A DNA stretch of 64,000 nucleotides. Source: Staphylococcus phage Machias. Positions 10,003 through 29,867 of this stretch are shown in pieces. How positions within the stretch are numbered: position 1 is the stretch's first letter; each line of letters opens with the position of its first letter. The DNA is taken from sequence record MW349128.1; one strand, 5' to 3'. The notes under the pieces were generated by a model. It made no database searches, was not told where the DNA came from, and saw only the letters and a list, made by a program, of their open reading frames with translations. Position numbers and translations under genes: made by a program.

Positions 10003-10023
10003 TAGTTTAATATAAACCCATTA

Positions 10024-10059
10024 TAGGATACGACAATGTAAGTCGTATCCTATTTTTTA
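10024..10059 (+). terminator. Rho-independent terminator
   Basis: AGGATACGAC-aatgtaa-GTCGTATCCT followed by TTTTTT. Confidence 0.7.
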
Positions 10060-10181
10060 TTTATAAATTTTAAAATATAAAAGATATTATCTTATAATTA
10101 TTTATACTAATATGAAGTTAATATAAACTCTTTATTATATATCATTATGGATAAATATTTATGAAAAGGAGAAAATAATCT

Positions 10182-10988
10182 ATGATTTTACCAAGTAAGA
10201 ATCAGCGTGTGTTTGATAATAACATCGCTAAAAATAAATGGTTCTACAATGGCCATATGAACTTACAAACTCTTGAGTTTGATCCGTTCGTAACTGGTTA
10301 CAGCTTTATCGTATGGACTAAAGTTCCTTCATGGGTTGAAAAACAATTCCCTGGATTTAAAGCTATGACTCAAAAGAACTTTAAATCATTCCAAGGTTTA
10401 GAAAATATTGAATTAACTACAAATGATTATATGCATACATTTAACGGTAATAACTATCGTACTGCTGCATCTATCACTAAAGGAAACACTGGTTTCCAAA
10501 TGACTCACCAAGAATTCTCTGGTAGTCCAATTAAAAATATGTATCAATATTGGGTATCTGGTATCCGTGATCCTCGTACTGGTATTGCAACTTATCCTAA
10601 AATTCATAATTTAGAATATGCTGCTAAGAACCATACAGGAGAATTACTATACATCCAAACTCGTCCTGATGCTAATAACACTAGTAAAAATAATATTGAA
10701 TTTGCTGCTTACTATACAGCTGTTATGCCTACTCGTATTAGCATTGATCACCATAACTATACTATGGAAACTCACGAAGAAGTTCAAATTGAACAAGATT
10801 TCGCAGGTAATATGGAAATCTCTGCTCGTGTAAATGACTTCGCTAAGTCTAAACTTAAAGAAGTATACAGCTTCGTTGAACAAGGTATGTTTGATCCTAA
10901 TGCACCTAAAGAAGCAGGAGCTCAGCTTTCTGACTTTGATTATAACAAAGGTGGAATTACAGGTTCAGGTAACGGAGATATTAAATAA
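10182..10988 (+). CDS. hypothetical protein (268 aa), possibly structural
   Basis: Strong RBS aaaggag; follows the large structural-like gene; terminator downstream. Confidence 0.5.
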   Translation: MILPSKNQRVFDNNIAKNKWFYNGHMNLQTLEFDPFVTGYSFIVWTKVPSWVEKQFPGFKAMTQKNFKSFQGLENIELTTNDYMHTFNGNNYRTAASITKGNTGFQMTHQEFSGSPIKNMYQYWVSGIRDPRTGIATYPKIHNLEYAAKNHTGELLYIQTRPDANNTSKNNIEFAAYYTAVMPTRISIDHHNYTMETHEEVQIEQDFAGNMEISARVNDFAKSKLKEVYSFVEQGMFDPNAPKEAGAQLSDFDYNKGGITGSGNGDIK

Positions 10989-11004
10989 TTTTAGCAATAA
11001 AAAT

Positions 11005-11040
11005 CCCCTAACACATTTATTTGTGTTAGGGGTTATATTT
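11005..11040. terminator. Bidirectional terminator between convergent genes
   Basis: CCCCTAACAC-atttattt-GTGTTAGGGG flanked by A/T runs on both sides. Confidence 0.6.
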
Positions 11041-13202: not shown

Positions 13203-13236
13203 AATTTTAGTTCCTTTCAGTTATGTTAATTTTAAA

Positions 13237-13809
13237 TTAAGTAAACATATTCAATCCCGGATTATTTGGATGGGGATTATATTGGGATTTATATCCATAA
13301 ATTGCATCATCAATTTGTTGTTGAAAAACTCTTCCTTTAATTACTTGCATACTTCTAGAATATTGAGTTTTCATATTAATTTGAGCTTTATCAATAATGG
13401 ATAGTTGATCTCTTCTAATTCCTGCTAAGCAATCAATATAAGATAATAATCCTGTATTAAATTTCATTCTTTGGAATGATTTAGAAGCCATTAAGTTTGG
13501 ATACATATCTCTAATATTAATAGATACAGTAATTTCTCTTGGGAAACCATCTGCAGTCCATGTACCTTCTTCACCACGAACTATATTCATTGAAGTTATT
13601 ATACCTGTATTACATTCAAATCTACCAGGACAATTAGCTCTAATAATAAACGGTTGCTTATAAGAGAATATTGAATCTTGTAAAGGTAAAGCTAATACTA
13701 ATAATGAAAGAAATGGTAAATATACATTGTCAAATATAGATTGTGGATCTCCATAAGCACTATAGAATTTAAATTCTAGATTATAAGTACGGTCAAAAGT
13801 TGAATTCAT
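13237..13809 (-). CDS. hypothetical protein (190 aa) immediately downstream of the IStron-like element
   Basis: ORF with a weak RBS (caggtttggATG). Confidence 0.45.
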   Translation of the reverse strand: MNSTFDRTYNLEFKFYSAYGDPQSIFDNVYLPFLSLLVLALPLQDSIFSYKQPFIIRANCPGRFECNTGIITSMNIVRGEEGTWTADGFPREITVSINIRDMYPNLMASKSFQRMKFNTGLLSYIDCLAGIRRDQLSIIDKAQINMKTQYSRSMQVIKGRVFQQQIDDAIYGYKSQYNPHPNNPGLNMFT

Positions 13810-13814
13810 CCAAA

Positions 13815-14005
13815 CCTGGTTTGTTAAATCTTGATTTTATATATTAAATATAAAGGCAAGACCTTGTATAAAATACACTTGGCTCAGTGACTAACGTATA
13901 AGGGAACCCTTATACTCCTTGTAAAGCTAATCGGACATTAGCTTATCACCCGTTTATCGTCTCCCGCTACCCGCAGGCGACTCTCATATCTTTTATTTTG
14001 TGAGA
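13815..14005 (-). ncRNA. Candidate TnpB guide (omega/right-end) RNA scaffold
   Basis: Only markedly GC-rich, stem-rich stretch in the region; stems read on the minus strand (as transcribed): AAGCTAAT/ATTAGCTT, GTATAAGGG/CCCTTATAC; lies directly 3' of the tnpB stop, where IS605 omega-RNAs map. Confidence 0.4.
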
Positions 14006-15199
14006 TTAAACATATTTTAAATCTAGAATATTTTTAGCTGCATTTAAATCTCTATCAAGAACTACATCACAATTAGGACAATCATGAGTATCATCACCTA
14101 AAACTAATTTCTCTTTATTAGTTCTAACATAACCACATGATGAACATGTCTGTGTAGTCTTTTTCTTAGTAATAATATTTAATTCATTATCATAAAAATT
14201 AGATTTAAATTTTAATTTTTCTAAAAAATCATACTTACCAAATCTTCTATTAGAACGTCTAAGATTTCTGAATCTATCAGATATTTTATGTGGATATGGT
14301 TCTATATTGATTACTTTATAATTTTTAACTAACCAATTAGTAATTTTGTCCCTATGATCTTCCAACATATCATATTCTCTATTATAAGACTTTCTTAATT
14401 GTTTTAAAAGTTTGTAATATGATTTTGAATAATATTTTTTTCTATCTAATTTAGATTTAATTTTTTCAGTTTTTCTTTCTTGTTTCCATAGAATATTCGG
14501 TATTTTAAATTCAAATACTTGACCGTTTGAGTCTACAGCAGCTAAAGGAGTTTTTATCCCCATATCAATACCAATTGAATAATTATTTTCTCTCTGTTTC
14601 TTATAATTGATTATCTCATAAGTTATAGAGATGTAGAATTTTTCATTCTTTCTGCTTATGGTGTAATATTTAAAATTAATATCGTTAGAGTTAATAAATT
14701 TTAAAGATTCCTTAGTTTTAATAACAAAAGGTTTAATTCCTTTCATTGCAGAAACTCTTATCCATTTTTTAGATAAAAATTTTACAGGTAAACTTAGTTT
14801 ATCTTTAACTATAAATCTAAATGAATCGTTAGAATATTTTTTCTTTTTAAATTTAGGTTTAAATTTATCACTATCTATATAATTTTTAGATTTTCTAGCT
14901 TTACTCTGCATTTCATAGTATTTAGAAAAAGTCTGATTTAGATCTTTTAAAGCTTCTTGTCTAACCATACTATTAACTTCATAAAGATAAGGATAATTTC
15001 CAGAATTTTGAATTTCGTTGTTTAATTTCTTTTGAAAATCAAATCCACTAAATTTCTTATCATCATCAATATTCTGATAATCTTCTAAAGCCATATTCCA
15101 TACTTTTCTTCTTACACCAAAGCATTTATTGAAATAATTCTTTTGGTCTTGATTTGGGTATATTCTAGTTTTGAAAGATTTAACTATTCCTTTTTTCAT
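14006..15199 (-). CDS. tnpB: TnpB (IS200/IS605-family OrfB) RNA-guided-nuclease-like protein, 397 aa
   Basis: RuvC-I GIDMGIKTPLAAV, zinc finger CSSCGY...CPNCD, RuvC-III DRDLNAAKNI; strong RBS aggaggtg; no tnpA present. Confidence 0.85.
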   Translation of the reverse strand: MKKGIVKSFKTRIYPNQDQKNYFNKCFGVRRKVWNMALEDYQNIDDDKKFSGFDFQKKLNNEIQNSGNYPYLYEVNSMVRQEALKDLNQTFSKYYEMQSKARKSKNYIDSDKFKPKFKKKKYSNDSFRFIVKDKLSLPVKFLSKKWIRVSAMKGIKPFVIKTKESLKFINSNDINFKYYTISRKNEKFYISITYEIINYKKQRENNYSIGIDMGIKTPLAAVDSNGQVFEFKIPNILWKQERKTEKIKSKLDRKKYYSKSYYKLLKQLRKSYNREYDMLEDHRDKITNWLVKNYKVINIEPYPHKISDRFRNLRRSNRRFGKYDFLEKLKFKSNFYDNELNIITKKKTTQTCSSCGYVRTNKEKLVLGDDTHDCPNCDVVLDRDLNAAKNILDLKYV

Positions 15200-15249
15200 T
15201 GTTTAATTTCACCTCCTAATCATATTATATAAATATGTTAGGAAATTCC

Positions 15250-15300
15250 TGATATGAATTTTTTATCAGTATTTTATACAATCTCTAAATTAGTAATTTA
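15250..15300 (-). repeat. IS605-type left-end subterminal hairpins
   Basis: Perfect palindromes CTGATAtgaattttttATCAG and CTCTAAATTagtAATTTAGAG just 5' of tnpB. Confidence 0.4.
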
Positions 15301-15304
15301 GAGC

Positions 15305-15410
15305 ACAGACTATATCATACTCATTGATATGAGTGAATATATTTAGTCGTTGGACAAGTCTTATTGACTTGATGCTGATTGAGATAATAATCTATTCCAG
15401 CAATTAATAT
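15305..15410 (-). mobile_element. Group I intron catalytic core (mini-intron family copy) on the minus strand
   Basis: Reverse complement contains ATTAATTGCTGG, AATCAGCATC, GTCCAACGACTAAAT, ATGATATAGTCT in the same order and spacing as the other mini-introns. Confidence 0.65.
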
Positions 15411-15442
15411 TCTTTGCTAATTAAAATTACTTTTAATAGGGA

Positions 15443-16354
15443 CTATTTGTGTGAATAATCCGGATAATACATTGATGCACCATCTAAATGTTCCATAAAG
15501 TTACCTACAATACCACCAATAACTGGCATATTTGCTACCATATCATTAATACTATCTTTAATAGTTCTAGTAATTTTACCTAAAATAGAAGCTCCACCAA
15601 TACGAGCCATTTCTTTTTGTTCTCGTATTTCTTGGTTTTTATTATTAACTTGAGAAGCAATATCAGATTGATTATATTCATGCATTGCAGATTCTGATAT
15701 ACTAGTTGATTTATCTGCATAGTAAGCTAGTCCATAGTTTTTATCATCTTGTAGAGATCCACCTAGATCAAATGATCCTTTTAAACCCATTGATGCATGA
15801 ACTTGAGAAGCCATAGTTTGTACGTATTTATAATATTCAGCCATTTTAGGTTCAAAGCTTATCATACGACCATCTTTAGTATTACCGATACCTACTAAAG
15901 ATAAACCAGAGTTTACTAATCTATCCATTCCTTCACCAAAACTCCATAATTTACCTTCTCCTGGTTTACCAAATAATTTACCATTTAATTTAGGCATACC
16001 CGGCATTATAAATACTAAAGGTAAATCTAATTCAAATGTTCTTTTATATATTCTTCTATTAGGATCATCTAAACTAGAATAGTACATAGGCATTCCAAAT
16101 ACATCTAGTTCACCTTTAACATTTCTTAATTGTTTTTTATCTTTAGCATTTTTATCTGTTAAATATTCAGTTGCTTGTCTTTGATTACCCAAAGCATCCA
16201 TAAAAGCACCAGTATCTTTTTGAGTAGGATCATATTCATGATAGTCATAATCACCTTTTTTCTCATCAGCTTGAGGTATTAAAGCCATATCATCATCTGC
16301 CACTTTTAAAGGTTCTTGTTCCTTAGACTCTTTTTTATCTTTTTCTTCAGCCAA
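15443..16354 (-). CDS. hypothetical protein (303 aa; TTG start) of the leftward virion module
   Basis: ORF from the track; its stop lies ~9 nt before the predicted 5' end of the IStron-like intron. Confidence 0.5.
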   Translation of the reverse strand: MAEEKDKKESKEQEPLKVADDDMALIPQADEKKGDYDYHEYDPTQKDTGAFMDALGNQRQATEYLTDKNAKDKKQLRNVKGELDVFGMPMYYSSLDDPNRRIYKRTFELDLPLVFIMPGMPKLNGKLFGKPGEGKLWSFGEGMDRLVNSGLSLVGIGNTKDGRMISFEPKMAEYYKYVQTMASQVHASMGLKGSFDLGGSLQDDKNYGLAYYADKSTSISESAMHEYNQSDIASQVNNKNQEIREQKEMARIGGASILGKITRTIKDSINDMVANMPVIGGIVGNFMEHLDGASMYYPDYSHK

Positions 16355-16455
16355 TTTATTTCACTTCCTTTTAATAATAAAGAGGATATGACACATAATA
16401 AATGTCATATCCCCAATTTAATTTATTTACTATAAATTTATGTTGCATCAAAATA

Positions 16456-19400
16456 TTATTTTCCTGAGAAAACAGGTATAGCTGGTCTAACGTCAATAAC
16501 AAATCTATCTCCATAAGAATCTCTAATTGCTTCTTGTAAATCTTGATTACCTGTAGATGGATCTTGACTTGAACCATCAGGAGTATAAGGATTATTAGGA
16601 TCATTAGGATTATTAGGGTTGTTTGGATTATTAGGATTTGATTGATTATCATTTCCATTATTATTGCTATTATTTCCATTAGAACCATTAGATCCATTAG
16701 AACCATTATTTCCATTAGATCCATTTTGACCGTCTTTACCGTTATTAATAATATTAGGATTTTCTTTAATAATTTTTTCAAGCTCTTTTTGAATATCTTT
16801 AATAATTACATTACCTTTAGAATCTACTAAATCACCTTTATTATTAATAATAGTATTAGAAATATTTGTTGTATTTCCATCTTTATTAATATTTTTACCT
16901 TTAAAGGACATATCTTTAAGTTGTTCTAACATTTTGGCAGTATTTTTATCAATATTGCTTGTATGTTTAATTATATTATCTAAATCCATACGTTTTTGTG
17001 GATCTACTTTCATAGGTCCTTTATTTTCATAATTTACTTTAGAATTATTATAATTATTAGTAATATTATAGATATTTCTTACTGTATTATTATTACCTTG
17101 TATAGTTTGATTTGTAATGGAATTATTATTAGTTGTAGGTTTACCATTATTATAATTATTATTGATAACCGTAGAACTATTATTTCCTCCATTATTAATT
17201 ATACTAGAATTATTCTGGTTATTATTAACATTTCCTTGACTTCCTGAAGATGATTGATTGTTACCATCAGCTCCAGAACTATATGAAGGTGATGAACCAT
17301 CTTTACCGTCTTTTCCATCAGAACCATCTTTACCAGATGATCCTTCTGAATCGTCAGATGATGAACTTGATCCACTTGAAGATCCAGATTCTGTAGCTTC
17401 CTTACCTGCTTTAGCTTTAAGTTCAGCCTGTTGTTCTTCATCTATCTTTTTAGCTTCTTCATAGTCAATTCCATAAATTCTAGCATAACGTTTCATTAAT
17501 CTATCATTTAAAGCTTCTTGTTCTTCTTCATCCATACGGTTATCATCTCTACCAGTAATAGAACCGTACCAAGTACCATTTTTGAAACTATATTCAGAAG
17601 CTCCAGCAGAAGATCCATTAGAGTCTCCTCCTTCACTATCGCTTCCACCTATTTTATCACTACCATCTAGAGGTTTACCTGTATCATCAGGACCACCGCC
17701 GCCATATCTCATTGTAATACCAATTTGTAATCCCATTTTTTGGTATTTATTTGCAGGAGTTACAGCAACACCATGACCATAATATGATTCAACTTGTTTT
17801 CCTCCACCTATATACATAGTAACATGGTTATCGTTATCACATAAAGTAATATCACCAATTTTTTTCTTAGTGCCTTTACTTATTTTTCTAAATTTAGTAC
17901 CACCATCTCTAAAAGTAAAAGTGGTAGCATTAATATCCATTTCTAAACCAGCTTTTTTGAATGAACGAGCAATTAAACTAGAACAGTCAAATGAATTTTT
18001 ACCTTGTCTATTTGACTGAGAGTATGTTGCACCATCTTGAGCTATTGCCCATTGTACTGCTTGTTTAATTTTATCTCTTTCAGATCCACCGGATCCTCCA
18101 CCTTTACCATAAACTCCACCAGTAATAGTAGGTTTTTCTAAAACTAAACCAGTTTTTCCAACTTTTTTATTTTTATTAGATGTAGATGATACCATATTTG
18201 CAAATTGATTAACGTTCGTATCACTATAAACAGTACTAGAACCTCCACCTTTAGCTTTAGTGGATTTCTTAGATGAACCCCCTAGTTTATCTAACCATTT
18301 TTTAGCGTTTGATTGTCTTTCAGGAATAACTTTAACTCCTGCACGTTCATACAAATTCTCCCATACAACTGTTGCTTCATCAACATTCTTAGCTTTCTTA
18401 ATAGCAGACCAAGCAGCAGATTCAGATCCTTGAAGTTCATACCACATGAAGTCTAACTGAGCATCAAGATCAGACCATTTCTTACCTTTCTTTTCAGCAA
18501 ATGCTTTAAGATTATCTTTACGATCATCCCATTGAGCTAGTCCTTTACCTCCGACCCAACCAGAGTTTTGTTCGGCACCGGGATCCATTTTGGATTCACG
18601 TTCAAAGTTACCTAATATACCTGCTATCTGATGATCTTCTAACCCTTTTTCAGCAAAGAAATTCCATACTTTAGATGCAACATCTTTACCATCAACACTT
18701 TCTGCTCCTCCATCAGATGATCCTTCTGAAGAAGAACTTCCTGATGAACCGGCCATGAATCCTGCCATAATATCATTCATCATTCCGCCAAGTTTATCAA
18801 ACCAATCACCAATTTTGTTTACTACTTCACCATCAGGATCAGTTATATCTTTTTTAGATTTTTTCTTTTTCTTCTTACTTAATAAAGAATAGAAAGGAGA
18901 TAATCTTAACATAGTTTCAGCCAATTTTTTAGGAGCTTTTTTAAGTTTACTCATTAAATTATTAGGCATCATTTTATGCATTTTTTCACTAATTTTACCC
19001 ATGATAGATAAAGGAGAATTTTTCATTACTCCATTAACATCTTTCTCGATATTATCTTTAGTTTTATTAGTTGACTCTTCTACTTGTTTTTTAGCATCTT
19101 TACTAGCTTTATCAGACATTCCTTGCATTTCAGCCATTTCTTTCTTAGCTCTTTCAGATGCATGATCTTCAATACCTTCTTGATAAGAACCTAATTCTTC
19201 TTTACTAGCTTCCACCATTTCACGACTTTGATTAGACATATCTTCTTCATGAGAAGAGAATTTGTCATCAAGGAATCCTGATAAGTTTTTAGCTAAGCCT
19301 ATTCCACCTTGAATAAGATTAGAAGTAGCTCCGACCATATTACTAATTCCTTTTCCAGCCATAGCTAAAGGTGCCATTAATAACATTGAAGCTCCACCTA

Positions 19401-22200
19401 CAGCTTTTTTAATTAAACCACCAAAACCTTCAGATTTTTCTTCCATCATACTATCAGTAGAATCACCAAATCCTTTAGCCATTCCAGTAGTTTTTTGTAC
19501 CATATTCATACCTAGACCAAAAGCAGGTTTTACAATTCCTTTATAAAGTCCAACTCCAGCTAATCCCATTAAAGGAACTTGAGCTAATAAAGGATTGTCT
19601 TTAATAAAACTTCCAATTAATGAAGAACTATCTTTATCACCAGTTAATTTAGAATCAACTAAAGGATCAACACTAAATTTAGCATTTTCACCGTTAGGTT
19701 GCTCTGAATCTAATTTCTCTTGTTCTTTTTTCTGTTTTGCAGGGTGATCATTAAAACCTATAAAGCTTCCTAAAGTTTTAATTGGATGTTTAAGAGATTC
19801 AATTGGATGTGCTATAGTACTCATTATTTCAGGAGCAGACAATAATATAGATAAAGGTAATCCTACACCAGTTGCGGCCAGTCCTACTCTTGAACCTACT
19901 TTCAAACCAGCTTTAACTATACCTTTACCGGCTTTAGATCTCATTAATTTACTTCCAACTTTACTTGCACCAAATTTACCTTTAGCTTTATTTCTTAGTT
20001 TAGAACGTAATCCTCTTCCAGCACCAGATAACAAAGCTCCACCAGCAGCAAATTTACCGGCAAGTGATTCACCAGCACCTATAACACTTTTACCAATTTT
20101 AGTATTAGCCATTTTACTATCTAATACTTTTCTTTTAAGTTTATCTTTATCAATATCTTTAATTTTATCTTTAGCTTTTTCTTCTATTTTATCTTTAATC
20201 TCATCTTTTAATGGATTATCTTCTTTTTCTTCTTGTTGTCTATTTACTTCAGAAGCATGAGCTTCATTACTATCTGAGATCAAAGTAGATTTTTGTTTAT
20301 CTTTATTATTTAAATTATTTCCATTATTAGAATTAGAAGAATTATTAGAATTAGAAGACTTAGTATCTTTAATATCATCCAATTTTTCTTTAATTTCATC
20401 AAATTTACTATCTTGTTTTTGACTATCTCCAGATACAATATTATTATTATCATTTTGTGAAGATTGTTGATTATTTTTTCTTACATCTAGTTTATCATTT
20501 ATTCTAGATACAATATTTTTAATTTCACTTATATCGCTATTGATAATATTAAAATTAATGTCAGAAAATTCATTGTTACCTTTAGAAGCATATGACTTAG
20601 GTTTTTGACCTTTATCATTAACTGCATTTATAGTACTTCCGCCAAGATTTTTTCTAATTGATTTAGATTTTTGATTCAATTGCATTCTAGCTTTAGTTAA
20701 ACTAGTTTTTACTTCTTTATCTTCAAATAGCTCTTCTAAAAGACTATTTACATTAGATGACTTAGTTTTAACTTTATCACTATCTTTAGAACTATTAACA
20801 TTTTCACTAATAATATTTTTTACTAATGATTTATAATCTTTAGAGTCTATATTTTTATCTTTAGCTTTACTTTCAACTCTTTTAAAGAATTCAGAACTTT
20901 CAATAGTTTTATCTATAGATTTTTTAATTTCATCATTAATAGTTTTAGATGTTTTAAAAGATCCTGAATCATAATCATAATGAATTTCTTCACCATCTTC
21001 AGAAGTTAAACCAACTATTTTAGATAAATAACCAGGAATAACTGTATTAATAGTACTATGTGTTTCAACATCAAAAGCTACTCTTTCATTTTTATTCTTT
21101 TTATTTGCTGTTGAAATTCCACCATCTATATTATTAAATAATTTATCTATAAGTTTGCTTTTCTGTTTATCTATGAAATCACGATTAGTTTTCTTCTTAT
21201 CTTCTTTATTTTCATCTTTAGTAAATACCGTTGACATATTTGTTAGCTTTTCACTAATTTTATCACTGTTTATTATATCAAAAGCTTTACCTTTAGCACT
21301 GTCTAAAAGTCCACCTTGTATGCCTTTAGTTCTACTCCCAATAATATCTTTAACTAATTCAATACCTTGTTTTTTAGCAAATTCTTTAGCTTTATCTTTA
21401 AAACCATCTGCTTGACTACCACTTAGTATATTAGAAAGAGTTATATTAGATAAGAACAAATCTTCTAAAGAATTACTATTTTTAATTTCACTTATATTTT
21501 TTACAGATGTATTATTTCTAATATCATTACTAGTTTTGATTAAACCTGTTAATCCTTCAAATAAATTCTCTCTAACATTATCATTAGTTTCTCTCATGTA
21601 ATGAAGAGTTTCCATTAAATTATTAAAACCTGTGGCATTAATTTGAGATAAATTAGATATAGAAGAAGTTAAAAGAGCAGAAGATTTAGCTGAAGATGAA
21701 TTATCATTAATTACTGTTGTTGATGAAATGACTTCAGATTTATTACTTTCTTCTTCATCAAAATCATCGAAAGAAAAATCTCCTATTTCATCATTATCTG
21801 AATTTTCATCACTCATATCAAAATCATCAAAGCTACTGAAATCAAAATCATCGCCCATATCCATTGTTCCGCCATCTAAATTGGATGATTTATTTAAAGC
21901 TCCTTTATCTATGATCGTTTCACCAGTTTTTAAAGTTCTTTTAGTACTTTTAAGAGCTTCTTTAGATAAATCTTTCCCAGTTTCAGTTAACTTCTTAAAT
22001 TGTTCTTTTCTATTATCTTTAACTTCTTTGATAGCTTTTAAAGGATTATTGTTATCAATAAGTTTTTTCATATTGTTTGATTTCATGTTATTCAAATTCT
22101 TTTTGAATTCATTATCAATGTATTTTCTAGAAGAATTAGAAGAGGAGTTCCTATTGAACTCTCTTTCTAATTTCTTATTATTAAATTTATCTTTAGCCAA
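16456..22200 (-). CDS. Giant (1914 aa) tape-measure-like virion protein with lysozyme-like and CHAP/NlpC-P60 peptidoglycan hydrolase domains
   Basis: Gly-rich hydrophobic segments typical of tape-measure proteins; GLAQWDDRKDNLKAFAEKKGKKWSDLDAQLDFMWYEL (phage tail lysozyme-like); NSFDCSSLIARSF...HVTMYIGGG (Cys/His CHAP-like); low-complexity S/G/N/D linkers. Confidence 0.75.
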   Translation of the reverse strand: MAKDKFNNKKLEREFNRNSSSNSSRKYIDNEFKKNLNNMKSNNMKKLIDNNNPLKAIKEVKDNRKEQFKKLTETGKDLSKEALKSTKRTLKTGETIIDKGALNKSSNLDGGTMDMGDDFDFSSFDDFDMSDENSDNDEIGDFSFDDFDEEESNKSEVISSTTVINDNSSSAKSSALLTSSISNLSQINATGFNNLMETLHYMRETNDNVRENLFEGLTGLIKTSNDIRNNTSVKNISEIKNSNSLEDLFLSNITLSNILSGSQADGFKDKAKEFAKKQGIELVKDIIGSRTKGIQGGLLDSAKGKAFDIINSDKISEKLTNMSTVFTKDENKEDKKKTNRDFIDKQKSKLIDKLFNNIDGGISTANKKNKNERVAFDVETHSTINTVIPGYLSKIVGLTSEDGEEIHYDYDSGSFKTSKTINDEIKKSIDKTIESSEFFKRVESKAKDKNIDSKDYKSLVKNIISENVNSSKDSDKVKTKSSNVNSLLEELFEDKEVKTSLTKARMQLNQKSKSIRKNLGGSTINAVNDKGQKPKSYASKGNNEFSDINFNIINSDISEIKNIVSRINDKLDVRKNNQQSSQNDNNNIVSGDSQKQDSKFDEIKEKLDDIKDTKSSNSNNSSNSNNGNNLNNKDKQKSTLISDSNEAHASEVNRQQEEKEDNPLKDEIKDKIEEKAKDKIKDIDKDKLKRKVLDSKMANTKIGKSVIGAGESLAGKFAAGGALLSGAGRGLRSKLRNKAKGKFGASKVGSKLMRSKAGKGIVKAGLKVGSRVGLAATGVGLPLSILLSAPEIMSTIAHPIESLKHPIKTLGSFIGFNDHPAKQKKEQEKLDSEQPNGENAKFSVDPLVDSKLTGDKDSSSLIGSFIKDNPLLAQVPLMGLAGVGLYKGIVKPAFGLGMNMVQKTTGMAKGFGDSTDSMMEEKSEGFGGLIKKAVGGASMLLMAPLAMAGKGISNMVGATSNLIQGGIGLAKNLSGFLDDKFSSHEEDMSNQSREMVEASKEELGSYQEGIEDHASERAKKEMAEMQGMSDKASKDAKKQVEESTNKTKDNIEKDVNGVMKNSPLSIMGKISEKMHKMMPNNLMSKLKKAPKKLAETMLRLSPFYSLLSKKKKKKSKKDITDPDGEVVNKIGDWFDKLGGMMNDIMAGFMAGSSGSSSSEGSSDGGAESVDGKDVASKVWNFFAEKGLEDHQIAGILGNFERESKMDPGAEQNSGWVGGKGLAQWDDRKDNLKAFAEKKGKKWSDLDAQLDFMWYELQGSESAAWSAIKKAKNVDEATVVWENLYERAGVKVIPERQSNAKKWLDKLGGSSKKSTKAKGGGSSTVYSDTNVNQFANMVSSTSNKNKKVGKTGLVLEKPTITGGVYGKGGGSGGSERDKIKQAVQWAIAQDGATYSQSNRQGKNSFDCSSLIARSFKKAGLEMDINATTFTFRDGGTKFRKISKGTKKKIGDITLCDNDNHVTMYIGGGKQVESYYGHGVAVTPANKYQKMGLQIGITMRYGGGGPDDTGKPLDGSDKIGGSDSEGGDSNGSSAGASEYSFKNGTWYGSITGRDDNRMDEEEQEALNDRLMKRYARIYGIDYEEAKKIDEEQQAELKAKAGKEATESGSSSGSSSSSDDSEGSSGKDGSDGKDGKDGSSPSYSSGADGNNQSSSGSQGNVNNNQNNSSIINNGGNNSSTVINNNYNNGKPTTNNNSITNQTIQGNNNTVRNIYNITNNYNNSKVNYENKGPMKVDPQKRMDLDNIIKHTSNIDKNTAKMLEQLKDMSFKGKNINKDGNTTNISNTIINNKGDLVDSKGNVIIKDIQKELEKIIKENPNIINNGKDGQNGSNGNNGSNGSNGSNGNNSNNNGNDNQSNPNNPNNPNNPNDPNNPYTPDGSSQDPSTGNQDLQEAIRDSYGDRFVIDVRPAIPVFSGK
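16560..16740 (-). repeat. Short tandem repeats (CCATTAGAWCCATTAGAACC-type units) encoding (GSN)n and (PNN)n
   Basis: Visible 9/15-nt periodicity; protein C-terminus GSNGNNGSNGSNGSNGNNSNNNGNDNQSNPNNPNNPNNPNDPNNP. Confidence 0.5.
17300..17620. repeat. ~300-bp dispersed repeat copy A, shared between the two giant genes (partner at 22680-22940)
   Basis: ~85-90% nucleotide identity; encodes EYSFKNGTWYGSITGRDD(N/R)RMDEEEQE(A/E)LNDRLMKRYA(R/K)IYGIDYEEAKKID... in both proteins. Confidence 0.6.
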
Positions 22201-22221
22201 TTTTTATTCTCACCACTCTTT

Positions 22222-25200
22222 TTATTTTAATTCTTCTAAAAGTCTATCTAATTCTTTAGTAGAAGCTAATGTATTTCTATCTATATTTGACAACATTTTA
22301 ACGAGGTCATCTGAATACCAATATTGCTCATAATCATATATATAATCTGTATTACCATTAGTTACAGTTGAATTTTTATAATTATTTACAATTTTATTAT
22401 AATGATTTGTAGTTTTATTTTTACCTTTTACAAATTCTTGTTTTACATCGGTATTATTAACAGTACTTCCTTGACCTTGATTATAATTATTATTTGTTGT
22501 ATTATTACTTGTATTACCTTGATTATTTTGTGTTGATTTATTACTATTAGAAAAACCACTATTCTCTAATGTTGGTAATTGGAAACCATTACCTAATTTA
22601 GAAATTTGACTACCTGCTTTTTCAATATTTTCTTTAGCTTTATCCTTAGAAGAACTTGCAGAAGATCCAGAATCTTTATCGTCTCCATCTTTAGATGAAC
22701 TTGATCCGCTTGAAGATCCAGACTCAGTAGCTTCTTTACCTGCTTTAGCTTTAAGCTCTTCTTGTTGTTCTTTATCTATTTTCTTAGCTTCTTCATAGTC
22801 AATTCCATAGATTTTAGCATAACGTTTCATTAAACGATCATTAAGCTCTTCTTGTTCTTCTTCATCCATTCTTCTATCATCTCTACCGGTAATAGAACCA
22901 TACCAAGTACCATTTTTGAAACTGTATTCTCCGGCTCCGGAACCTGAAGAAGAATCAGAACTATCACTATCAGAAGATTCACCATCTTCATCTTTAGAAA
23001 CTTTAGATTCAGATCCTTTTTCATCTTCATCTTTATTATCTTTTTTATCAGCTTTAGATTTTTCTTTTTCTACTTCTTTATCAATTTTTTCTTCTGCTTT
23101 TTTATCATCAGAAGAACCTCCACCACCAATATAAGGATTTACATACATTTTTATTAAATCTACTAATATCATTCTACCTTTATTAGTTGGCATATAACCA
23201 TCTTCTTTAACTAAAACAGAATTAGCTTTACTAAACCAGTCAATTATATTAGCTGCACTAGCATTAATTGATTCATTGACTGCATTCATCAAATCAGTTA
23301 AATCTAAACTAGTACCGTTTTTATTACTATTGAAATAAGTATTAACGAAATATACATTAGCTTTATCATACATATTCTGTATTTCTGATATTTCTCCTGT
23401 AGATAATCCTCCGTTTAAACCTAATTGGATGACTATTGCTACACCTGTTCTGTTATACTCATCAATATTATTCTGTAATATTCTTCTACCAGATTCAGAT
23501 CCACCAGAATATTGTTTCCCTACAGAAGCTTCTATTTTAGCACCTTTAATTTTAATTCTAAGATCATTTGAAGCATCTTTAGTTATTTCATCACCTATAA
23601 TCAAAATTTTATTAAATTGATTTGATGATCTTAATATTCCAGTTTGTTTTTTCTCTTTACTTTCTTTAATTGCATTAAATACTTTATTTACTTTTTTAGC
23701 TTTTTCTTTAACTTTATAATCATCTTGCTTATTGATTCTATTTATTTGTGTATTAATTTTATCTTGCTCTCTCTTTTGTTGAGCAATTTCTTTTCTTCGG
23801 TTCTGCATATCTTGGATGCTTTTCTTCTTAAGTTGTCTTTGCATAGATACAGAATTCATATCACCTACTAGTGAATGACCTCCACCTTTATCTTTTTCAC
23901 CTTTTTTACTACTTCCACCTTTAGAACTACTCTTATCGTCATCATCATCTGAACCTTTACCTTTTACTTTAGCAAATACATAAGGTGCTGGATCAATTGC
24001 AGTTTCATTTGAAGGTCTTCCTTTCATGACCTGGAAGTGCATATGTGGTGCAGTAGTTTGAGCCCCTGTATTACCAGAGACGGCAATTTTTTGACCTACT
24101 CCTACTTTATCACCTTTTTTAGCAGTTATTTTACTATTATGCATATACCAAGTGTAGATACTACCGTTTTTGACCTCAACGATATTACCTCCACCAACGT
24201 CTTTAATTATATTACTTACTGTACCAGGTACAATAGCTAATATATCTGTTCCTGTAGGCATACCAATATCTATACCCCAGTGTTTTGAACTTCCGTTAAA
24301 TGATAGTCCTTGATAATTACCAAATGGTTGCCAGAATTGGTGTTTCTTAATCCAAGCACCTGCAGCATTATCAGGTATTTTATTCAATACAGATTGTGAT
24401 GTAATAGAAGGTGCATTTTTATCTATTTCAATTTCATCACCTTGTAATTGTCCACTACTGCTACCTGATGAAGATGATGAATCTCCACCTGAACTAGAGT
24501 TTTTCATTTTAGACATGGCAACTACCATTTCTTCCATTTTAACTAAGAAACGTGCAAACCAATCACCAATTTCTCCTCCACCTTTAGTAGAGAAATCTAT
24601 TCCACCTTTTGCAATTTGATATAAACTACCTAAAGGAGTATCATAGAACATATTTTCTTGTATTTCTTCTTCAGCTTTAGGACCTGACTTCATTTTATTA
24701 TCAGTTATTGTTTTAAACATATCTCCACCAACTTTTGAAATTGGGAATAAAGGAGATGATCTAAACATCATTTTAGAAGTAGATAATATTAATCTTCCTA
24801 AACCTGTTTCATCTTCATTTTCTTTTTCTTCTTTTTCTCTAGCCTCAAGATTATCTCCTGGGTGTTTAGACAATCCGAAAAAGCTTCCTAAAGTTTTAAT
24901 TGGATGTTTAAGAGATTCAATAGGATGTTTTATAGTTTTGATAATATCTGGTGCCCACATTGCCGCACCTATAATAGGACCAACAATAGGTATAAAAGGT
25001 AATGCTGTTTTTAGACCAGCTTTTAAAGCAAATTTTCCAGCAGCTTTCATACCGCCTTTACTGAATAATTTATTTTTAGCTTTACCTAAGAATCCAAAAG
25101 TTTTTTTACCCCCATTTTTTATAGAGCTAAATATACCTTTACCTATAGAACTAGCTTTTTTAAAACCTTTACCTAAAAATTTACCCGTTTTAGTTAATCC

Positions 25201-28146
25201 CTTAACTGCAAATGATTTTACTTTAGGTAACTTTTTAGCACCCCATTTTACTACAGATGCACCTGTATTGAATGCACCTTTACCAAATTTAACAGTTTTA
25301 TTGAATACACCTTTACCAAATTTAACAGTTTTTCCAAATATATTTTTACCTAAATTTCCAATACCTTTTATTAAATTTTTAGTTTTCCCATAAAAGTTCT
25401 TTCCTATATCTACAACTTTACCAATAGCACCTTTAACTTTACCAGGTAGTCCTCTAACTACATCAAGCATTTTCATTGCACCTTCAGGTAAGAATTTCTT
25501 TAGTATCTTAGGTAAGAATTTTGCTGCTATAGCACCTCCACCTAACATTAAACCAGCTTTACCTAAAAATCCTAATCCTGTTCCAACACTACCCATTAGA
25601 CCTTTTTCTTGATCTTTTTTCCTTTTACCGTTCATTAATTTAGCCAAAACAGTAGCAGATAGTCCTGCAAAAGCAATTGTTCCTGGTTTACTAAAATCTA
25701 ACATTGAGTTCATTAATTTCTTAGTACCTGTTTCTTTTTCAGCTGCTCCACCAGAGCCAAATTTAAGAGTTCCTCTTAAATCTTCAGCAACCTTTGTTTT
25801 ACTAGATCCTGATAATTTTGATATAACGTCTTCACCAGTCTCAGCAGCATTTGCAGTTGATAAACCTTTTTTCATTTCATCTAATTTTTTATTATCATCA
25901 GATTGATTCATGTCGTTTATCATAGTTTTACTTTGCTTAGGATAAGCAGTGCTAATTAAATTTTCAAGATATTTTCTAGCTTTAGATTGCTTTTCTTCTC
26001 TAGATAAATCATCAATACTTTTAGTTGGTTCTTTATTTAAATCAACTTTATTATTACTCTGAGGTCCTTTAATATTCTTTATTAAATTCATTAAAGGATG
26101 ATTATCTGTATAGTTATTATCTATGATACCAGAATTATGATCTTCATTATTACCATTATTATTAGTGTTTTCTCTTAAAATAGATGAAGGATCTTTACGC
26201 ATATCATTAAATTTATTAACAGAACTTGATAGTTTACCTAATTTGTCTTGAACTGATTTTGTTTTTTCATTAGATAAATAACTAGGTAAATTAAACTTAC
26301 TAGACGAATCTATAATACTATTAATTTTTCCTATTTTATCATTTACATAATCTTTATTATTGCTTATATTTTCTGGATTAATATCGTCTAATTTACTTTC
26401 TATTTCTAAGAATAATTTTTTAAGTTCATCAAGATCATCATTCTTCCATTCGATATCAGAATAATCTTTAACTTCATTAATTTTATTTACTCTAGCAGAA
26501 CTTGATTGAGTTTCATTATTTCTTCTTTTTAATCCTTTAATATCTGTAAATGACATTAATGTTGAATCATCTTTACCAATCTTGTTATACTCAGAGCCTA
26601 TTGATTTCTTAATATTAAAAAGATCAATATTAAATTTAGATATATCATTATTGAAAATATTTTCAATAATATCTGAATAATTTATATCCTTAGTATGCTT
26701 AGATAATTCATCTTTATTTTTTACTGGTTTATTAATTTTACTTAAAGAGAGTAAGATATCTTTAATTTCTTCATCTTCAATACCATTATCAGATAAATCT
26801 TTTCCTAATTTAGTATCTTTAAAATTAAATAATGATTTTTCTTTTAATTTATCATTTATATTTTTTCTAGTATTCTCTCTACTATCCCAAGTTCCTTCAG
26901 AATAGTTATATATACTACCTAATTCACTATTATTAACTAAACCGTTAGATTTTCCTTCTCTTTTAGCAATTAGGTTACCTTGTAATCTAGATAAAAGATC
27001 TGGTATAGCTTTATTAATAGAAGTATGACTTTCCCTATCAAATTGAACCGGAGTACTTTTATCTCTTTTATTCTTAGTTGATATTGTTCCATCACTTAAA
27101 ACGTTATCTTTTAAATTTCCGATTCTTTTATTAAGTGCTTCACCTAAATTAGAAATATATTTATTATCATTACCTTTAAGTTTATCTAAGGTATTTGATA
27201 ACCTTCCTTCATCATCAGTCAGTTCACTTACTAATAAAGAACCTAAATTATTAGGATCAAATTTTCTATTAAGTCTACTAAATATACCTTTATTTTCAAC
27301 ATCATCTGGATCGTATCCTGAAGTACTTCCATACATCAATTTCTTCATGCCCATTTGAGCACCTGTAGTTAATGCTAATTCAATAGGATTTTTTGCAAAT
27401 CCCATTAATATATTCTTAAGTCCTTCAGAACCACCTAACATACTTATCATTGAATTATTTTCAATATTTGTTTTATTATCTAAATATTTTAATAAACTTA
27501 TATTGCCATTAAGTATCTCAAATAGTTTACTTTGTTTTCCTCTTTTAGTGTTTTCTTCAAGTAAGGTATTTTGATATATAGAACTCTGTATTGATGCTAA
27601 ATTCGATACAGCTGAATTCATTAAAGTACTTGTAGCCTCATTTGATATCGCTAAATTTCTTAAAGCTATATTAGTTCCTGTAAAACCTTTTTGGTTAATC
27701 GTAGCGAGATTATTAAAAGCAATTAAAGGGGAATTTACTAGACTAGATTTCTTTTTATCTGAAACATTTATTATTTCAGATTTTGTACCATCATCATTAT
27801 CAATTATTTCAGTAATTGTTTCATACTCAGGTTTAGAATTTGATAGTTCTTCACTTTCTTCTGAAAATATATCATTTTCTTTTGAACTAGATTTAATGCT
27901 TTTTATTAAATTCTTAGTGGAAGATTTAATTTCAGAAACGTTTTTAATTCTTCTTTCTTCTTTATTCATTAAATTTAATCCATCAGAACCAATAACACTA
28001 TCTAATGCTGGATTTGATTTAATAAATGCATTGAAAAGAATACGACTAGTATTTTTAGAAGCATTTTTAATTATCTCTGATTTATTATTTTTTTCTAGCC
28101 TCTTTATATTCTTTTTATTATTATCCATTACTTTTAATTTCACCAC
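22222..28146 (-). CDS. Giant (1974 aa) tape-measure-like virion protein with M23 peptidase and SGNH/GDSL-like hydrolase domains
   Basis: HWGIDIGMPTGTDILA...HMHFQV (M23 HxxxD/HxH); ILIIGDEITKD...GLNGG (SGNH-like); Gly-rich hydrophobic segments; shares IIKTIKHPIESLKHPIKTLGSF and the EYSFKNGTWYGSITGRDD module with the neighbouring giant gene. Confidence 0.75.
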   Translation of the reverse strand: MVKLKVMDNNKKNIKRLEKNNKSEIIKNASKNTSRILFNAFIKSNPALDSVIGSDGLNLMNKEERRIKNVSEIKSSTKNLIKSIKSSSKENDIFSEESEELSNSKPEYETITEIIDNDDGTKSEIINVSDKKKSSLVNSPLIAFNNLATINQKGFTGTNIALRNLAISNEATSTLMNSAVSNLASIQSSIYQNTLLEENTKRGKQSKLFEILNGNISLLKYLDNKTNIENNSMISMLGGSEGLKNILMGFAKNPIELALTTGAQMGMKKLMYGSTSGYDPDDVENKGIFSRLNRKFDPNNLGSLLVSELTDDEGRLSNTLDKLKGNDNKYISNLGEALNKRIGNLKDNVLSDGTISTKNKRDKSTPVQFDRESHTSINKAIPDLLSRLQGNLIAKREGKSNGLVNNSELGSIYNYSEGTWDSRENTRKNINDKLKEKSLFNFKDTKLGKDLSDNGIEDEEIKDILLSLSKINKPVKNKDELSKHTKDINYSDIIENIFNNDISKFNIDLFNIKKSIGSEYNKIGKDDSTLMSFTDIKGLKRRNNETQSSSARVNKINEVKDYSDIEWKNDDLDELKKLFLEIESKLDDINPENISNNKDYVNDKIGKINSIIDSSSKFNLPSYLSNEKTKSVQDKLGKLSSSVNKFNDMRKDPSSILRENTNNNGNNEDHNSGIIDNNYTDNHPLMNLIKNIKGPQSNNKVDLNKEPTKSIDDLSREEKQSKARKYLENLISTAYPKQSKTMINDMNQSDDNKKLDEMKKGLSTANAAETGEDVISKLSGSSKTKVAEDLRGTLKFGSGGAAEKETGTKKLMNSMLDFSKPGTIAFAGLSATVLAKLMNGKRKKDQEKGLMGSVGTGLGFLGKAGLMLGGGAIAAKFLPKILKKFLPEGAMKMLDVVRGLPGKVKGAIGKVVDIGKNFYGKTKNLIKGIGNLGKNIFGKTVKFGKGVFNKTVKFGKGAFNTGASVVKWGAKKLPKVKSFAVKGLTKTGKFLGKGFKKASSIGKGIFSSIKNGGKKTFGFLGKAKNKLFSKGGMKAAGKFALKAGLKTALPFIPIVGPIIGAAMWAPDIIKTIKHPIESLKHPIKTLGSFFGLSKHPGDNLEAREKEEKENEDETGLGRLILSTSKMMFRSSPLFPISKVGGDMFKTITDNKMKSGPKAEEEIQENMFYDTPLGSLYQIAKGGIDFSTKGGGEIGDWFARFLVKMEEMVVAMSKMKNSSSGGDSSSSSGSSSGQLQGDEIEIDKNAPSITSQSVLNKIPDNAAGAWIKKHQFWQPFGNYQGLSFNGSSKHWGIDIGMPTGTDILAIVPGTVSNIIKDVGGGNIVEVKNGSIYTWYMHNSKITAKKGDKVGVGQKIAVSGNTGAQTTAPHMHFQVMKGRPSNETAIDPAPYVFAKVKGKGSDDDDDKSSSKGGSSKKGEKDKGGGHSLVGDMNSVSMQRQLKKKSIQDMQNRRKEIAQQKREQDKINTQINRINKQDDYKVKEKAKKVNKVFNAIKESKEKKQTGILRSSNQFNKILIIGDEITKDASNDLRIKIKGAKIEASVGKQYSGGSESGRRILQNNIDEYNRTGVAIVIQLGLNGGLSTGEISEIQNMYDKANVYFVNTYFNSNKNGTSLDLTDLMNAVNESINASAANIIDWFSKANSVLVKEDGYMPTNKGRMILVDLIKMYVNPYIGGGGSSDDKKAEEKIDKEVEKEKSKADKKDNKDEDEKGSESKVSKDEDGESSDSDSSDSSSGSGAGEYSFKNGTWYGSITGRDDRRMDEEEQEELNDRLMKRYAKIYGIDYEEAKKIDKEQQEELKAKAGKEATESGSSSGSSSSKDGDDKDSGSSASSSKDKAKENIEKAGSQISKLGNGFQLPTLENSGFSNSNKSTQNNQGNTSNNTTNNNYNQGQGSTVNNTDVKQEFVKGKNKTTNHYNKIVNNYKNSTVTNGNTDYIYDYEQYWYSDDLVKMLSNIDRNTLASTKELDRLLEELK
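22680..22940. repeat. ~300-bp dispersed repeat copy B (partner at 17300-17620)
   Basis: Same as copy A. Confidence 0.6.
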
Positions 28147-28204
28147 CGCTCATATTTTCTTAATACAAATATGTTCCATCAAGTTATATGATTTGATAAT
28201 AATT

Positions 28205-28268
28205 TACAAAAAAAAACAAAAATTTCCCTAACACAAATACTCCATTTAAGGAATATAAGTGTTAGGGA
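28205..28268 (-). terminator. Terminator-like hairpin for the minus-strand gene 28275-28937
   Basis: TCCCTAACAC...GTGTTAGGGA inverted repeat with a T-run on the minus strand (aatttttgttttttttt). Confidence 0.5.
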
Positions 28269-28274
28269 AAATAA

Positions 28275-28937
28275 TTATTTATTTTTAACTACTTCTTGAA
28301 TTTTATCTAATACTAAATCTACATCTTTTTCTAAAGATAATTTTTCAAATAACATAGTTAATAAGAAATCTATTGTTTTATGGTTAATAAAGAAAATAGA
28401 ACCAATAATATGATTCATTTCTTTTTTACTGACTTTTTTATTTTCTTGATGATATTTTCTATTAGGTGTTAATCTTCTTATATGACCACCATTATTAACC
28501 ACTGTTTTACTTACAGAATCAATTATTGTTTGATAGAATTTATCATCACTAACTTTTTCACCTGTATTTAATACAAAATCTTTACTGAAATTTAAATCAT
28601 TTAATTCTATTACATATTTGTATTCTAAATTATACTTCTCAATCAAAGTAGAATTTATAGAAACAAAATAAAGAATTATATCTAATAATTCAAGAGAAGC
28701 TAATGAAGTTAATTCATAGCGTTCCTTAATATTATCAGTCTTTAATAAATTATACATTTCAATATTAAACTCATAAGATTCTTCAATTATTTGAGGTAAA
28801 AATCTATCAATCATTTGATGTAATTCTTCGTCACCAAAATCATAACGTTTAATTACATCAATATGATTTAAATATAGATTCTCTATATTAATATTAATAC
28901 TTCTTTTCTTATTGTAAAAATGCTTCATTAATATCAT
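28275..28937 (-). CDS. hypothetical protein (220 aa) upstream of the tape-measure-like genes (possible tail assembly chaperone position)
   Basis: ORF; function assigned by synteny only. Confidence 0.45.
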   Translation of the reverse strand: MILMKHFYNKKRSININIENLYLNHIDVIKRYDFGDEELHQMIDRFLPQIIEESYEFNIEMYNLLKTDNIKERYELTSLASLELLDIILYFVSINSTLIEKYNLEYKYVIELNDLNFSKDFVLNTGEKVSDDKFYQTIIDSVSKTVVNNGGHIRRLTPNRKYHQENKKVSKKEMNHIIGSIFFINHKTIDFLLTMLFEKLSLEKDVDLVLDKIQEVVKNK

Positions 28938-28949
28938 CCAATCTATTTA

Positions 28950-29867
28950 TTATTGAAATTTATTTTTAAACTCTTTTTCATACTCTTCATTAACTTTATT
29001 TAAATCGATTTCTTCACCATCTACTGTTCTAAATTTATCAGCAGATAATTTCTCACCTTTTAATACTTCTTTATCATCAGATTCAACTTTAGCTTGCATA
29101 ACTATATGTGGAGTTACATATGAAGGTGATTTAACTGTATCTAATTTAGGTGCATGAATACGAGCTTTTTGTAATTTACGTGTAAAGTTGATGTTATTAA
29201 TTGAAATTGTTTTACCCTCTTTTAAAGCTGATGTACGTAATGAATCTGCTAATGTTACAATATCTTTTAATTCTTTTTTACTGTATGCTTCATTTCCTGA
29301 TTCATCTACAAGATTCATTAATAAATCATTTAATAATTCATCTTTAGTGTATGATTTATCACTGTATTTCTTTTTAGTAGTTTTCTTAACGTCTTTTTTA
29401 ACTCGATTAACTTTAATTTTTTCCACTTTATTATCATCCTTTTTACTTGTTTTAGTTTTTGTACTAGATTTCTTTTTAACTGGATTCTTAACTTCTTCTA
29501 CTTTTTCTTCTTTAACTTCTTTTTCTTCTTTAATTTCTTTTTCTTTATCAGGATTAATTCCTGAAGCTGTAATAGTTACATTATCATATTCTGTATCTGT
29601 TGGAATATCCTTTAATTTGATAATTACATCTTTTAATTCATCAGAAGCAATATTAATTTCATTCTTATTGTAATTAATTTTGATTACATTATCATCTTCT
29701 GGGATTAATACTAAATTCTTTCTATCATATTTTTCTGGAATTGTTTCAATTTCAAAAGTTAATACGTCACCTTTATAACCTTGTTCTTCACTTACTTTTA
29801 ATTCTGCTGATTCTAATACACTTAAATCCTTAGTTTCATTAGTTACTTTTCTTCTTGTAATTGCCAT
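28950..29867 (-). CDS. hypothetical Lys-rich protein (305 aa), first gene of the leftward module
   Basis: ORF with RBS ggagaga; central KKxSxKxK low-complexity region. Confidence 0.5.
   Translation of the reverse strand: MAITRRKVTNETKDLSVLESAELKVSEEQGYKGDVLTFEIETIPEKYDRKNLVLIPEDDNVIKINYNKNEINIASDELKDVIIKLKDIPTDTEYDNVTITASGINPDKEKEIKEEKEVKEEKVEEVKNPVKKKSSTKTKTSKKDDNKVEKIKVNRVKKDVKKTTKKKYSDKSYTKDELLNDLLMNLVDESGNEAYSKKELKDIVTLADSLRTSALKEGKTISINNINFTRKLQKARIHAPKLDTVKSPSYVTPHIVMQAKVESDDKEVLKGEKLSADKFRTVDGEEIDLNKVNEEYEKEFKNKFQ

Follow-up and report, generated by a model that had tools for sequence, protein, structure and literature searches.

Tape measure proteins (TMPs) are normally present as a single species per tail. 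Muralytic domains lie within the TMPs of staphylococcal siphophages (M23) and of mycobacteriophages, and T5 pb2 is reportedly a tape measure with M23-type activity. Such siphophage-type TMPs, in which a muralytic domain is combined with membrane-active segments, number one per tail, whereas the locus described here encodes two paralogs: the giant minus-strand open reading frames (ORFs) A and B, which occupy positions 16,456 to 28,146 of a stretch of 64,000 nucleotides (nt) from Staphylococcus phage Machias (sequence record MW349128.1), the whole of which is referred to as the window. Beyond the enzyme domains, siphophage-type TMPs have no sequence similarity to A or B. In the same size class as A and B are the single-copy giant proteins AR9 gp203 (1,925 amino acids, aa), BpSp gp263 (1,797 aa), phiR1-37 g083 (2,553 aa) and PBS1 gp95, of which AR9 gp203 is annotated as tail tape measure. 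These AR9-type giants, which come from uracil-DNA jumbo myophages, likewise contain Gly-rich hydrophobic segments and have a muralytic domain within the final third of the protein, but their payload is a VgrG3-like lysozyme, whereas A and B carry M23, Phage_lysozyme2 and NlpC/P60 domains.

Annotations and published descriptions of this gene pair already exist. Among the Staphylococcus jumbo phages of the S6/MarsHill/Machias group, its direct orthologues, with gene order and context unchanged, are MarsHill gp087 and gp086, PB50 WPH64084/WPH64085 and DC4_00260/DC4_00259, and GenBank carries annotations of it for PB50, MarsHill, Madawaska and SA1. The B orthologue is labelled 'tape measure protein' in PB50 and MarsHill, and the A orthologue 'tail lysin' in the same two phages and 'tail tape measure protein' in SA1. 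Korn et al. described 'two potential tape measure proteins' in these phages and reported high helical content and transmembrane predictions for the orthologues of A and B. Among the products listed in the DC4 paper are a tail lysozyme and an M23-containing tape measure protein. A search of the literature for two tape measure proteins turned up no relevant account other than that of Korn et al. From the comparisons below, A and B are, on balance, probably ancient tandem paralogs of a single AR9-type giant gene, both of them expelled tail-lumen proteins, by which the payload has been doubled.

Organisation of the gene pair

The window has a GC content of 22-34% and codes for a contractile tail sheath, a tube protein, a baseplate wedge subunit and a RecD/Dda-like helicase. 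Positions 16000-28500 align from end to end with Staphylococcus phage vB_StaM_PB50 at 98.2% identity; their identity to AH12 is 95.9%, and they give patchy matches of 78-83% to S6, PALS_2, DC4, MarsHill, Madawaska, LY01 and SA1. The sheath is 99% identical to that of PB50, 88-90% to those of the S6 group, 48% to that of Listeria phage LPJP1 and 34-43% to those of BpSp, AR9 and PBS1, and a neighbouring protein matches a Machias protein across 303 residues with 100% identity. Judged by these identities, the DNA is that of a Machias/PB50-type Staphylococcus jumbo myophage related to AR9. The PB50 pair is 98-99% identical to the pair in the window, and the A/B proteins of the S6 clade are ~55-63% identical to those of the Machias/PB50/AH12 clade. 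The features of the pair are as follows.

28208..28270, minus strand, terminator-like hairpin then T-run, upstream of B (-28.4 kcal/mol, z -8.2)
22222..28146, minus strand, ORF B (position 1), 1,974 aa, GTG start, alternative ATG at 28128
22201..22221, minus strand, intergenic gap between B and A, 21 nt, in frame
16456..22200, minus strand, ORF A (position 2), 1,914 aa, TTG start
16382..16414, minus strand, predicted terminator-like hairpin directly downstream of A

Three in-frame stops (TAA, TGA and TAA, including B's own TAA at 22222-22224, just outside the gap) separate the two frames, and a GGTGA Shine-Dalgarno-like element lies in the gap 9 nt before the TTG of A. A and B are therefore two genes and not a single gene split by a frameshift. 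An earlier, sequence-only reading of the window had described two giant minus-strand ORFs of ~1,900 aa with a candidate ribosome-binding site in a 21-nt gap and no frameshift split, and on these points it was correct. The hairpin at 28208..28270 marks the 5' limit of the B-A unit, and the terminator-like hairpins at both flanks match the annotation of MarsHill.

Paralogy and shared modules

A and B are collinear paralogs. All BLASTP matches between them are collinear and far above chance: identity is 26% across the N-terminal ~400 aa (E 4e-11), 42% in the Gly/Lys-rich hydrophobic part that closes with HPIESLKHPIKTLGSF (E 9e-18), 23% in the pre-enzyme linker and 92% in a 71-aa block (E 5e-37), whose DNA is 88% identical over 245 nt. 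The collinearity extends to the C-terminal helix of B, beyond which A has ~150 aa more. The modules lie at the following positions.

26983..27048, minus strand, family motif VQFDRESHTSINKAIPDLLSRL, B residues 367-388
21016..21081, minus strand, family motif VAFDVETHSTINTVIPGYLSKI, A residues 374-395
24859..25749, minus strand, Gly/Lys-rich amphipathic stretch of B, residues 800-1096, net charge about +48
24880-24927, minus strand, HPIESLKHPIKTLGSF in B, after the hydrophobic segment (residues 1045-1069)
19741..20103, minus strand, Gly-rich stretch of A, residues 700-820
19762-19809, minus strand, HPIESLKHPIKTLGSF in A, after the hydrophobic segment (residues 772-797)
22694..22938, minus strand, shared post-enzyme block, B copy (EYSFKNGTWYGSITGRDD...), predicted beta-hairpin and two helices
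17360..17604, minus strand, shared post-enzyme block, A copy, 88% nt and 92% aa identity to the B copy

A single strongly hydrophobic segment is present in each protein (residues 772-797 of A and 1045-1069 of B), within a Gly-rich, positively charged stretch. Both the Gly-rich hydrophobic segments and the discrete modules common to the two ORFs had been proposed from the letters alone and are borne out here, the latter by BLASTP. A tandem duplication of 33 nt (97% identity, 25266-25331) in the Gly/Lys-rich stretch of B gives a repeated KTVKFGKG.FN unit at residues ~939-960; small-scale internal repeat expansion has been described for tape-measure genes.

The best conserved parts of both proteins between the Staphylococcus phage clades are the non-enzymatic shared modules and not the enzymes, namely the N-terminal motif, the part that follows the hydrophobic segment (residues 801-1150 of A and 1001-1200 of B; 72-89% conserved between clades), the post-enzyme block (87%) and the C-terminus. 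Across A and B of eight phages, a 57-residue core of the block hardly varies, although identity between B proteins of different clades is only ~55%; this core was not found in the AR9-type giant proteins. In an AlphaFold model of the C-terminal 245 aa of B, the block alone is confidently predicted, as a beta-hairpin and two helices (predicted local distance difference test, pLDDT, 74-83), and the remainder is disordered (mean pLDDT 44). Among contigs of uncultured relatives, designated L015, L016, L017 and L019, analogous blocks are present in position 2 of L015 and in both paralogs of L017, where the block falls in the stretch in which the two are most alike (50% identity), and HPIESLKHP[IF]KTLGSF is present again in L016 and L019. 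These modules, shared by A and B, may be contacts with common partners.

The residues directly after the block are lineage-specific and common to A and B of one genome, which hints at some concerted evolution. Third-position identity in the block is 63-81% between A and B within genomes against 67-72% between orthologues of different clades; for the window clade and SA1 only this is suggestive of gene conversion, which is not claimed, as the baseline is high at 25% GC; the lineage-specific residues give the better indication.

Single and paired genes among relatives

Queries with A and with B both matched all nine Staphylococcus jumbo phages in the collection. The order B-A was found in 7/7 annotations inspected, with the same small upstream genes wherever the upstream region was shown, and the payloads were confirmed by Pfam for both proteins of S6 and SA1 and for B of LY01. 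Tandem pairs were also present in all four inspected contigs of uncultured relatives, with the following enzyme domains.

L015: position 1, lysozyme; position 2, M23
L016: position 1, none detected; position 2, lysozyme and M23
L017: position 1, M23; position 2, lysozyme
L019: position 1, Peptidase_C39_2; position 2, VgrG3-like and NlpC/P60

The paired proteins are 1,393 and 1,721 aa in L015 and 1,467 and 1,753 aa in L016. A gene of ~480-510 aa follows the pair in L016, L017 and L019, and a 424-aa ORF runs up to the contig end in L015. AR9, BpSp and phiR1-37 have a single giant gene of this type. The sequence-only reading had regarded two full-length tape-measure-like proteins in tandem as unusual; within this lineage (9/9 Staphylococcus jumbo phages and four uncultured relatives) the arrangement is not unusual. 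Only 27 relatives of A residues 150-830 were detected by phmmer in 1.84 billion representative proteins.

The N-terminal family motif, at about residue 350-390 of the AR9-type giants, connects A and B with these single genes, and with the synteny it supports orthology to AR9 gp203. A strict form of the motif, V.FD..[ST]....I...IP..L..[IL], located at about residue 350-420, occurs in A, B, AR9 and BpSp and in both copies of two of the four metagenomic pairs; it had no match in the position-1 proteins of L016 and L017, in LPJP1 gp99 or in phiR1-37 g083. A neighbour-joining tree was built from the N-terminal 760 aa with capped distances and resolves shallow and middle nodes only. The position-2 proteins of L016, L017 and L019 form one cluster (bootstrap 94) and the position-1 proteins of these contigs another (bootstrap 67). 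Staphylococcus A clusters with position 2 of L015 (bootstrap 61), and AR9 and BpSp stand apart in a clade of their own (bootstrap 100). The uncultured pairs and the positional clades thus indicate an old duplication of which both copies were kept, with cassettes moving between the positions.

Enzyme domains of A and B

The enzyme domains of the two proteins are listed here, the first two belonging to A and the last two to B.

18283..18681, minus strand, Phage_lysozyme2, A residues 1174-1306, E 2e-40, GNFERES motif
17749..18069, minus strand, NlpC/P60 (Amidase_5-like) cysteine peptidase, A residues 1378-1484, Cys in FDCSS and His in HVTMYIG
23989..24285, minus strand, Peptidase_M23, B residues 1288-1386, E 1e-22, HWGID, YMH and HMHF intact
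23152..23604, minus strand, SGNH domain, B residues 1515-1665, homologous to the C-terminal domain of S. aureus OatA

In Pfam searches, Phage_lysozyme2 scored 138.6 bits against a cutoff of 28.2 and covered positions 2-140 of the 140 of the model. The second domain of A matched NLPC_P60 (30.9 bits, cutoff 23) and Amidase_5 (29.1 bits, cutoff 21), with no match to the CHAP model in A; NlpC/P60 and CHAP belong to the same papain-like clan. FDCSS and HVTMYIG are kept in 8/8 phages. Peptidase_M23 of B scored 80.1 bits (cutoff 28.7) with the HxxxD and HxH metal ligands present, and is 46-53% identical to the M23 domains in TMPs of staphylococcal and streptococcal siphophages. No clade has lost the catalytic motifs of M23, NlpC/P60 or lysozyme. 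That A and B carry different peptidoglycan-hydrolase payloads, as had been read from the sequence, was thereby confirmed. For A, the lysozyme-like domain of that reading was recovered and its CHAP domain replaced by NlpC/P60; for B, both M23 and SGNH were recovered, the latter in this phage without its catalytic Ser and His.

The B gene of LY01 (L009, 7971-13916) is a mosaic, with an N-terminal 760 aa 90% identical to S6 and M23 and SGNH domains of the type of the window clade, which indicates that payload modules recombine among co-circulating Staphylococcus jumbo phages.

An OatA-like SGNH module in two forms

The SGNH domain of B had no Pfam match and was assigned by phmmer to S. aureus OatA (PDB 6WN9/6VJP; E 2e-9, query 9-159 to chain 6-149), with an alignment that covers almost all of the C-terminal domain. 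An alignment of B of eight phages distinguishes two forms of the module. Block I GDS and the Block V His (GVHPN) are kept only in S6, MarsHill and PALS_2. In the window, Glu stands in place of the catalytic Ser (GDE) and Met in place of the His (DGYMPT), and the catalytic residues are lacking likewise in PB50 and AH12 (GDE and DGYMPT), LY01 (GDD and DGITLN) and SA1 (GDE and GYMLN). The Block III Asn (LGxNG) of the B domain is kept. Because the Block I Ser and the Block V His are replaced, the module of this phage is predicted to be non-catalytic.

OatA of S. aureus combines SGNH with an acyltransferase-3 membrane domain, whereas the phage module lies in a putative virion protein without acyltransferase-3. 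No mention of an OatA-like module was found in the published accounts of these phages (Korn et al. and the DC4 paper). The module is relevant since O-acetylation is reported to render S. aureus peptidoglycan resistant to lysozyme and to contribute to the adsorption of other phages to S. aureus.

Flanking genes

Genes for sheath, tube and baseplate wedge lie near the pair. The immediate neighbours are these.

13237..16354, minus strand, downstream virion structural gene, orthologue of AR9 gp204 and BpSp gp264
28275..29867, minus strand, two small upstream genes, 220 aa and 305 aa, syntenic in Staphylococcus jumbo phages

A comparison of tail gene order with AR9-like phages, which had been proposed in the sequence-only reading, showed that the same gp204/gp264-type virion gene follows the giant gene in AR9 and BpSp and follows A here. 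LPJP1 has both the upstream and the downstream neighbours of the giant gene in common, and the 220-aa upstream product is related to LPJP1 gp100 and AR9 gp201. Nearly all structural matches of the AlphaFold model of the downstream protein were to baseplate/tube-initiator chains, from phiKZ, P1, T4, A-1(L), AFP, PVC and R-pyocin, and a baseplate/tube-initiator-like fold is assigned to it with low confidence.

The downstream virion gene is interrupted in the window by a 1,642-bp TnpB/IS605-OrfB-type element at 13816-15457 (ORF 14006-15199, minus strand), which splits it into ORFs of 303 aa (15443-16354) and 190 aa (13237-13809). The insertion is clean, without flanking loss or duplication, and the element has a GC-rich structured 3' tail. 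The gene is intact in PB50 and Machias. Copies of the element, 85% identical, are found at four places in LY01. No self-splicing intron of group I or II was detected at the insertion: Rfam gave no match in the window at gathering thresholds, nor any within 13000-16500 at E<=1. The giant gene of LPJP1 (7912-12498) is annotated as three ORFs of 565, 269 and 594 aa and the downstream virion gene (13040-14512) as two, and AR9 gp204 (11796-14131) is joined from three pieces. The neighbourhood of the giant gene thus appears prone to interruption by introns or mobile elements.

The 305-aa upstream gene (28950-29867, minus strand) gave a sub-threshold Pfam match to the core histone model PF00125 (E 0.001; 19.7 against 26.4 bits), which is probably due to chance. 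A 720-aa protein (11040-13202, minus strand) had no Pfam or PHROG match; its positional counterparts are BpSp gp204 ('portal vertex protein') and AR9 gp127 ('virion structural protein'), and it resembles LPJP1 gp93, which is located just after the giant-gene module of LPJP1.

Discussion

The tape-measure label of A and B is indirect and is drawn from their size, the Gly-rich hydrophobic segments, the synteny with AR9 gp203 and the baseplate-like gene downstream. Korn et al. measured tails of 233 nm for MarsHill and 237 nm for S6. At the ~0.15 nm per residue expected of a ruler, the ~1,650 non-enzymatic residues would span ~250 nm when the ~300 enzyme residues are left out, while the full lengths of 1,914-1,992 aa correspond to 0.12 nm per residue. 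The tape-measure-like character ascribed to both ORFs from sequence is upheld by size, hydrophobic segments and tail-gene context, and not by homology to tape-measure models.

Several observations weigh against co-expelled, tape-measure-like paralogs. Neither A nor B matched a curated tape-measure model in Pfam or NCBIfam, and the tape-measure matches in PHROG are confined to residues 1130-1412, i.e. to the enzyme domains. The orthologues of A and B are unlisted in the DC4 virion proteome obtained by liquid chromatography-mass spectrometry (15 proteins, without even the tail sheath), and BpSp gp263 is unlisted in the BpSp virion proteome (mass spectrometry, 23 proteins); the coverage of both is too low to count as absence. 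Landmarks in A and B are offset by up to ~270 residues, and the paired proteins of uncultured relatives differ in length by 5-24%, which is a misfit with two equal rulers in register. The model of the downstream protein has a mean pLDDT of 47 with confident core segments. The deep nodes of the tree are unresolved and a single origin of all pairs is unproven.

If the two paralogs are indeed expelled together, A and B would be produced from one late bicistronic unit and both be loaded in the lumen of the ~235-nm contractile tail. They would be held there by docking modules, namely V.FD.E[ST]H..IN..IP..L, HPIESLKHPIKTLGSF, the post-enzyme block and the C-terminal helix, through contacts with common partners such as tube, chaperone and baseplate hub. 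Upon sheath contraction both proteins would be expelled via the tube, and the enzyme cassettes would open the thick staphylococcal wall, where M23 may cut the glycine bridges, the lysozyme-like domain the glycan strands and NlpC/P60 the stem peptide. The OatA-like SGNH might have esterase activity in the S6 clade, in which its catalytic residues are intact, and serve in binding or structure in phages with the dead form, such as this one. The Gly-rich hydrophobic segments could enter the membrane and line the DNA path, and the duplication would have doubled the enzyme payload per tail. A bolder form of this proposal is offered tentatively: the two proteins might constitute a heteromeric tape measure of co-assembling paralogs with partly concerted docking modules and with cassettes swapped between the two positions and between phages. 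The design would be an old trait conserved in a mostly uncultured branch of AR9-like jumbo phages, and the OatA module would have passed in some lineages from esterase to a non-catalytic part in wall binding or structure.

The two copies may instead divide the labour, one being the ruler and the other a tail lysin carried along in the tube or hub by means of the shared docking modules, without an effect on length. The sequence-only reading had similarly suggested that one of the two might be an ejected wall-degrading or inner-body-type protein and not a length ruler. The ruler could be B, as annotated, or the position-2 copy, which directly precedes the baseplate-like gene like the single gene of AR9. 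Such a division would accommodate the length differences of up to 24% in uncultured pairs (L015, L016) and the unequal landmark spacing of A and B, and it is the reading adopted by the GenBank annotators and Korn et al. It sits less well with the lengths of A and B in the Staphylococcus phages, which agree within 1-4% in 7/8 (and in PALS_2 too, allowing for a late-annotated start of A) despite only ~20% identity in the N-terminal half, and with the retention of every non-enzymatic family module in both copies. As B also carries enzymes, the annotators' split into 'tape measure' and 'lysin' fails, and a division of labour, the principal alternative, is considered unlikely.

Large ejection proteins with muralytic domains and membrane segments occur in other phages, and AR9-type phages are distant relatives of phiKZ-type phages, with which they have virion and non-virion RNA polymerases in common. 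These parallels, together with the lack of homology to canonical tape-measure families, would suit capsid-internal ejection proteins, like T7 gp16 or those of the phiKZ inner body, that form a trans-envelope channel while the ruler is encoded elsewhere. The position of the genes among tail and baseplate genes with a baseplate-like gene next, the approximate fit of their size to the measured tail length and the annotation of the AR9 orthologue as tape measure all speak for the tail, no other tape-measure candidate has been reported in these genomes (Korn et al.), and no evidence supporting an inner-body role was found, so that a capsid-internal location is very unlikely. An artefact or decay, with a single gene broken by mutation or frameshift or one duplicate decaying, could draw only on the gap of 21 nt being a multiple of three and is almost certainly wrong, given the three stops, the complete N-terminal region and family motif in each ORF, and the presence of both genes intact and under purifying selection in eight phages and four contigs, with gaps of 21-24 nt in different frames.

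What is added to Korn et al. and the DC4 paper, in neither of which it was found, comprises the distribution of single and paired genes, the swapping of payloads between positions, the OatA-type identity of the SGNH module with its catalytic loss, and the near-invariant shared block. These refinements do not amount to a new kind of system. A conserved pair would pose the question of how two long proteins fit one ~4-nm lumen and which of them sets the tail length, and all four enzyme modules, of which three, to judge by their motifs, seem active in this phage, are candidate anti-staphylococcal lysins.

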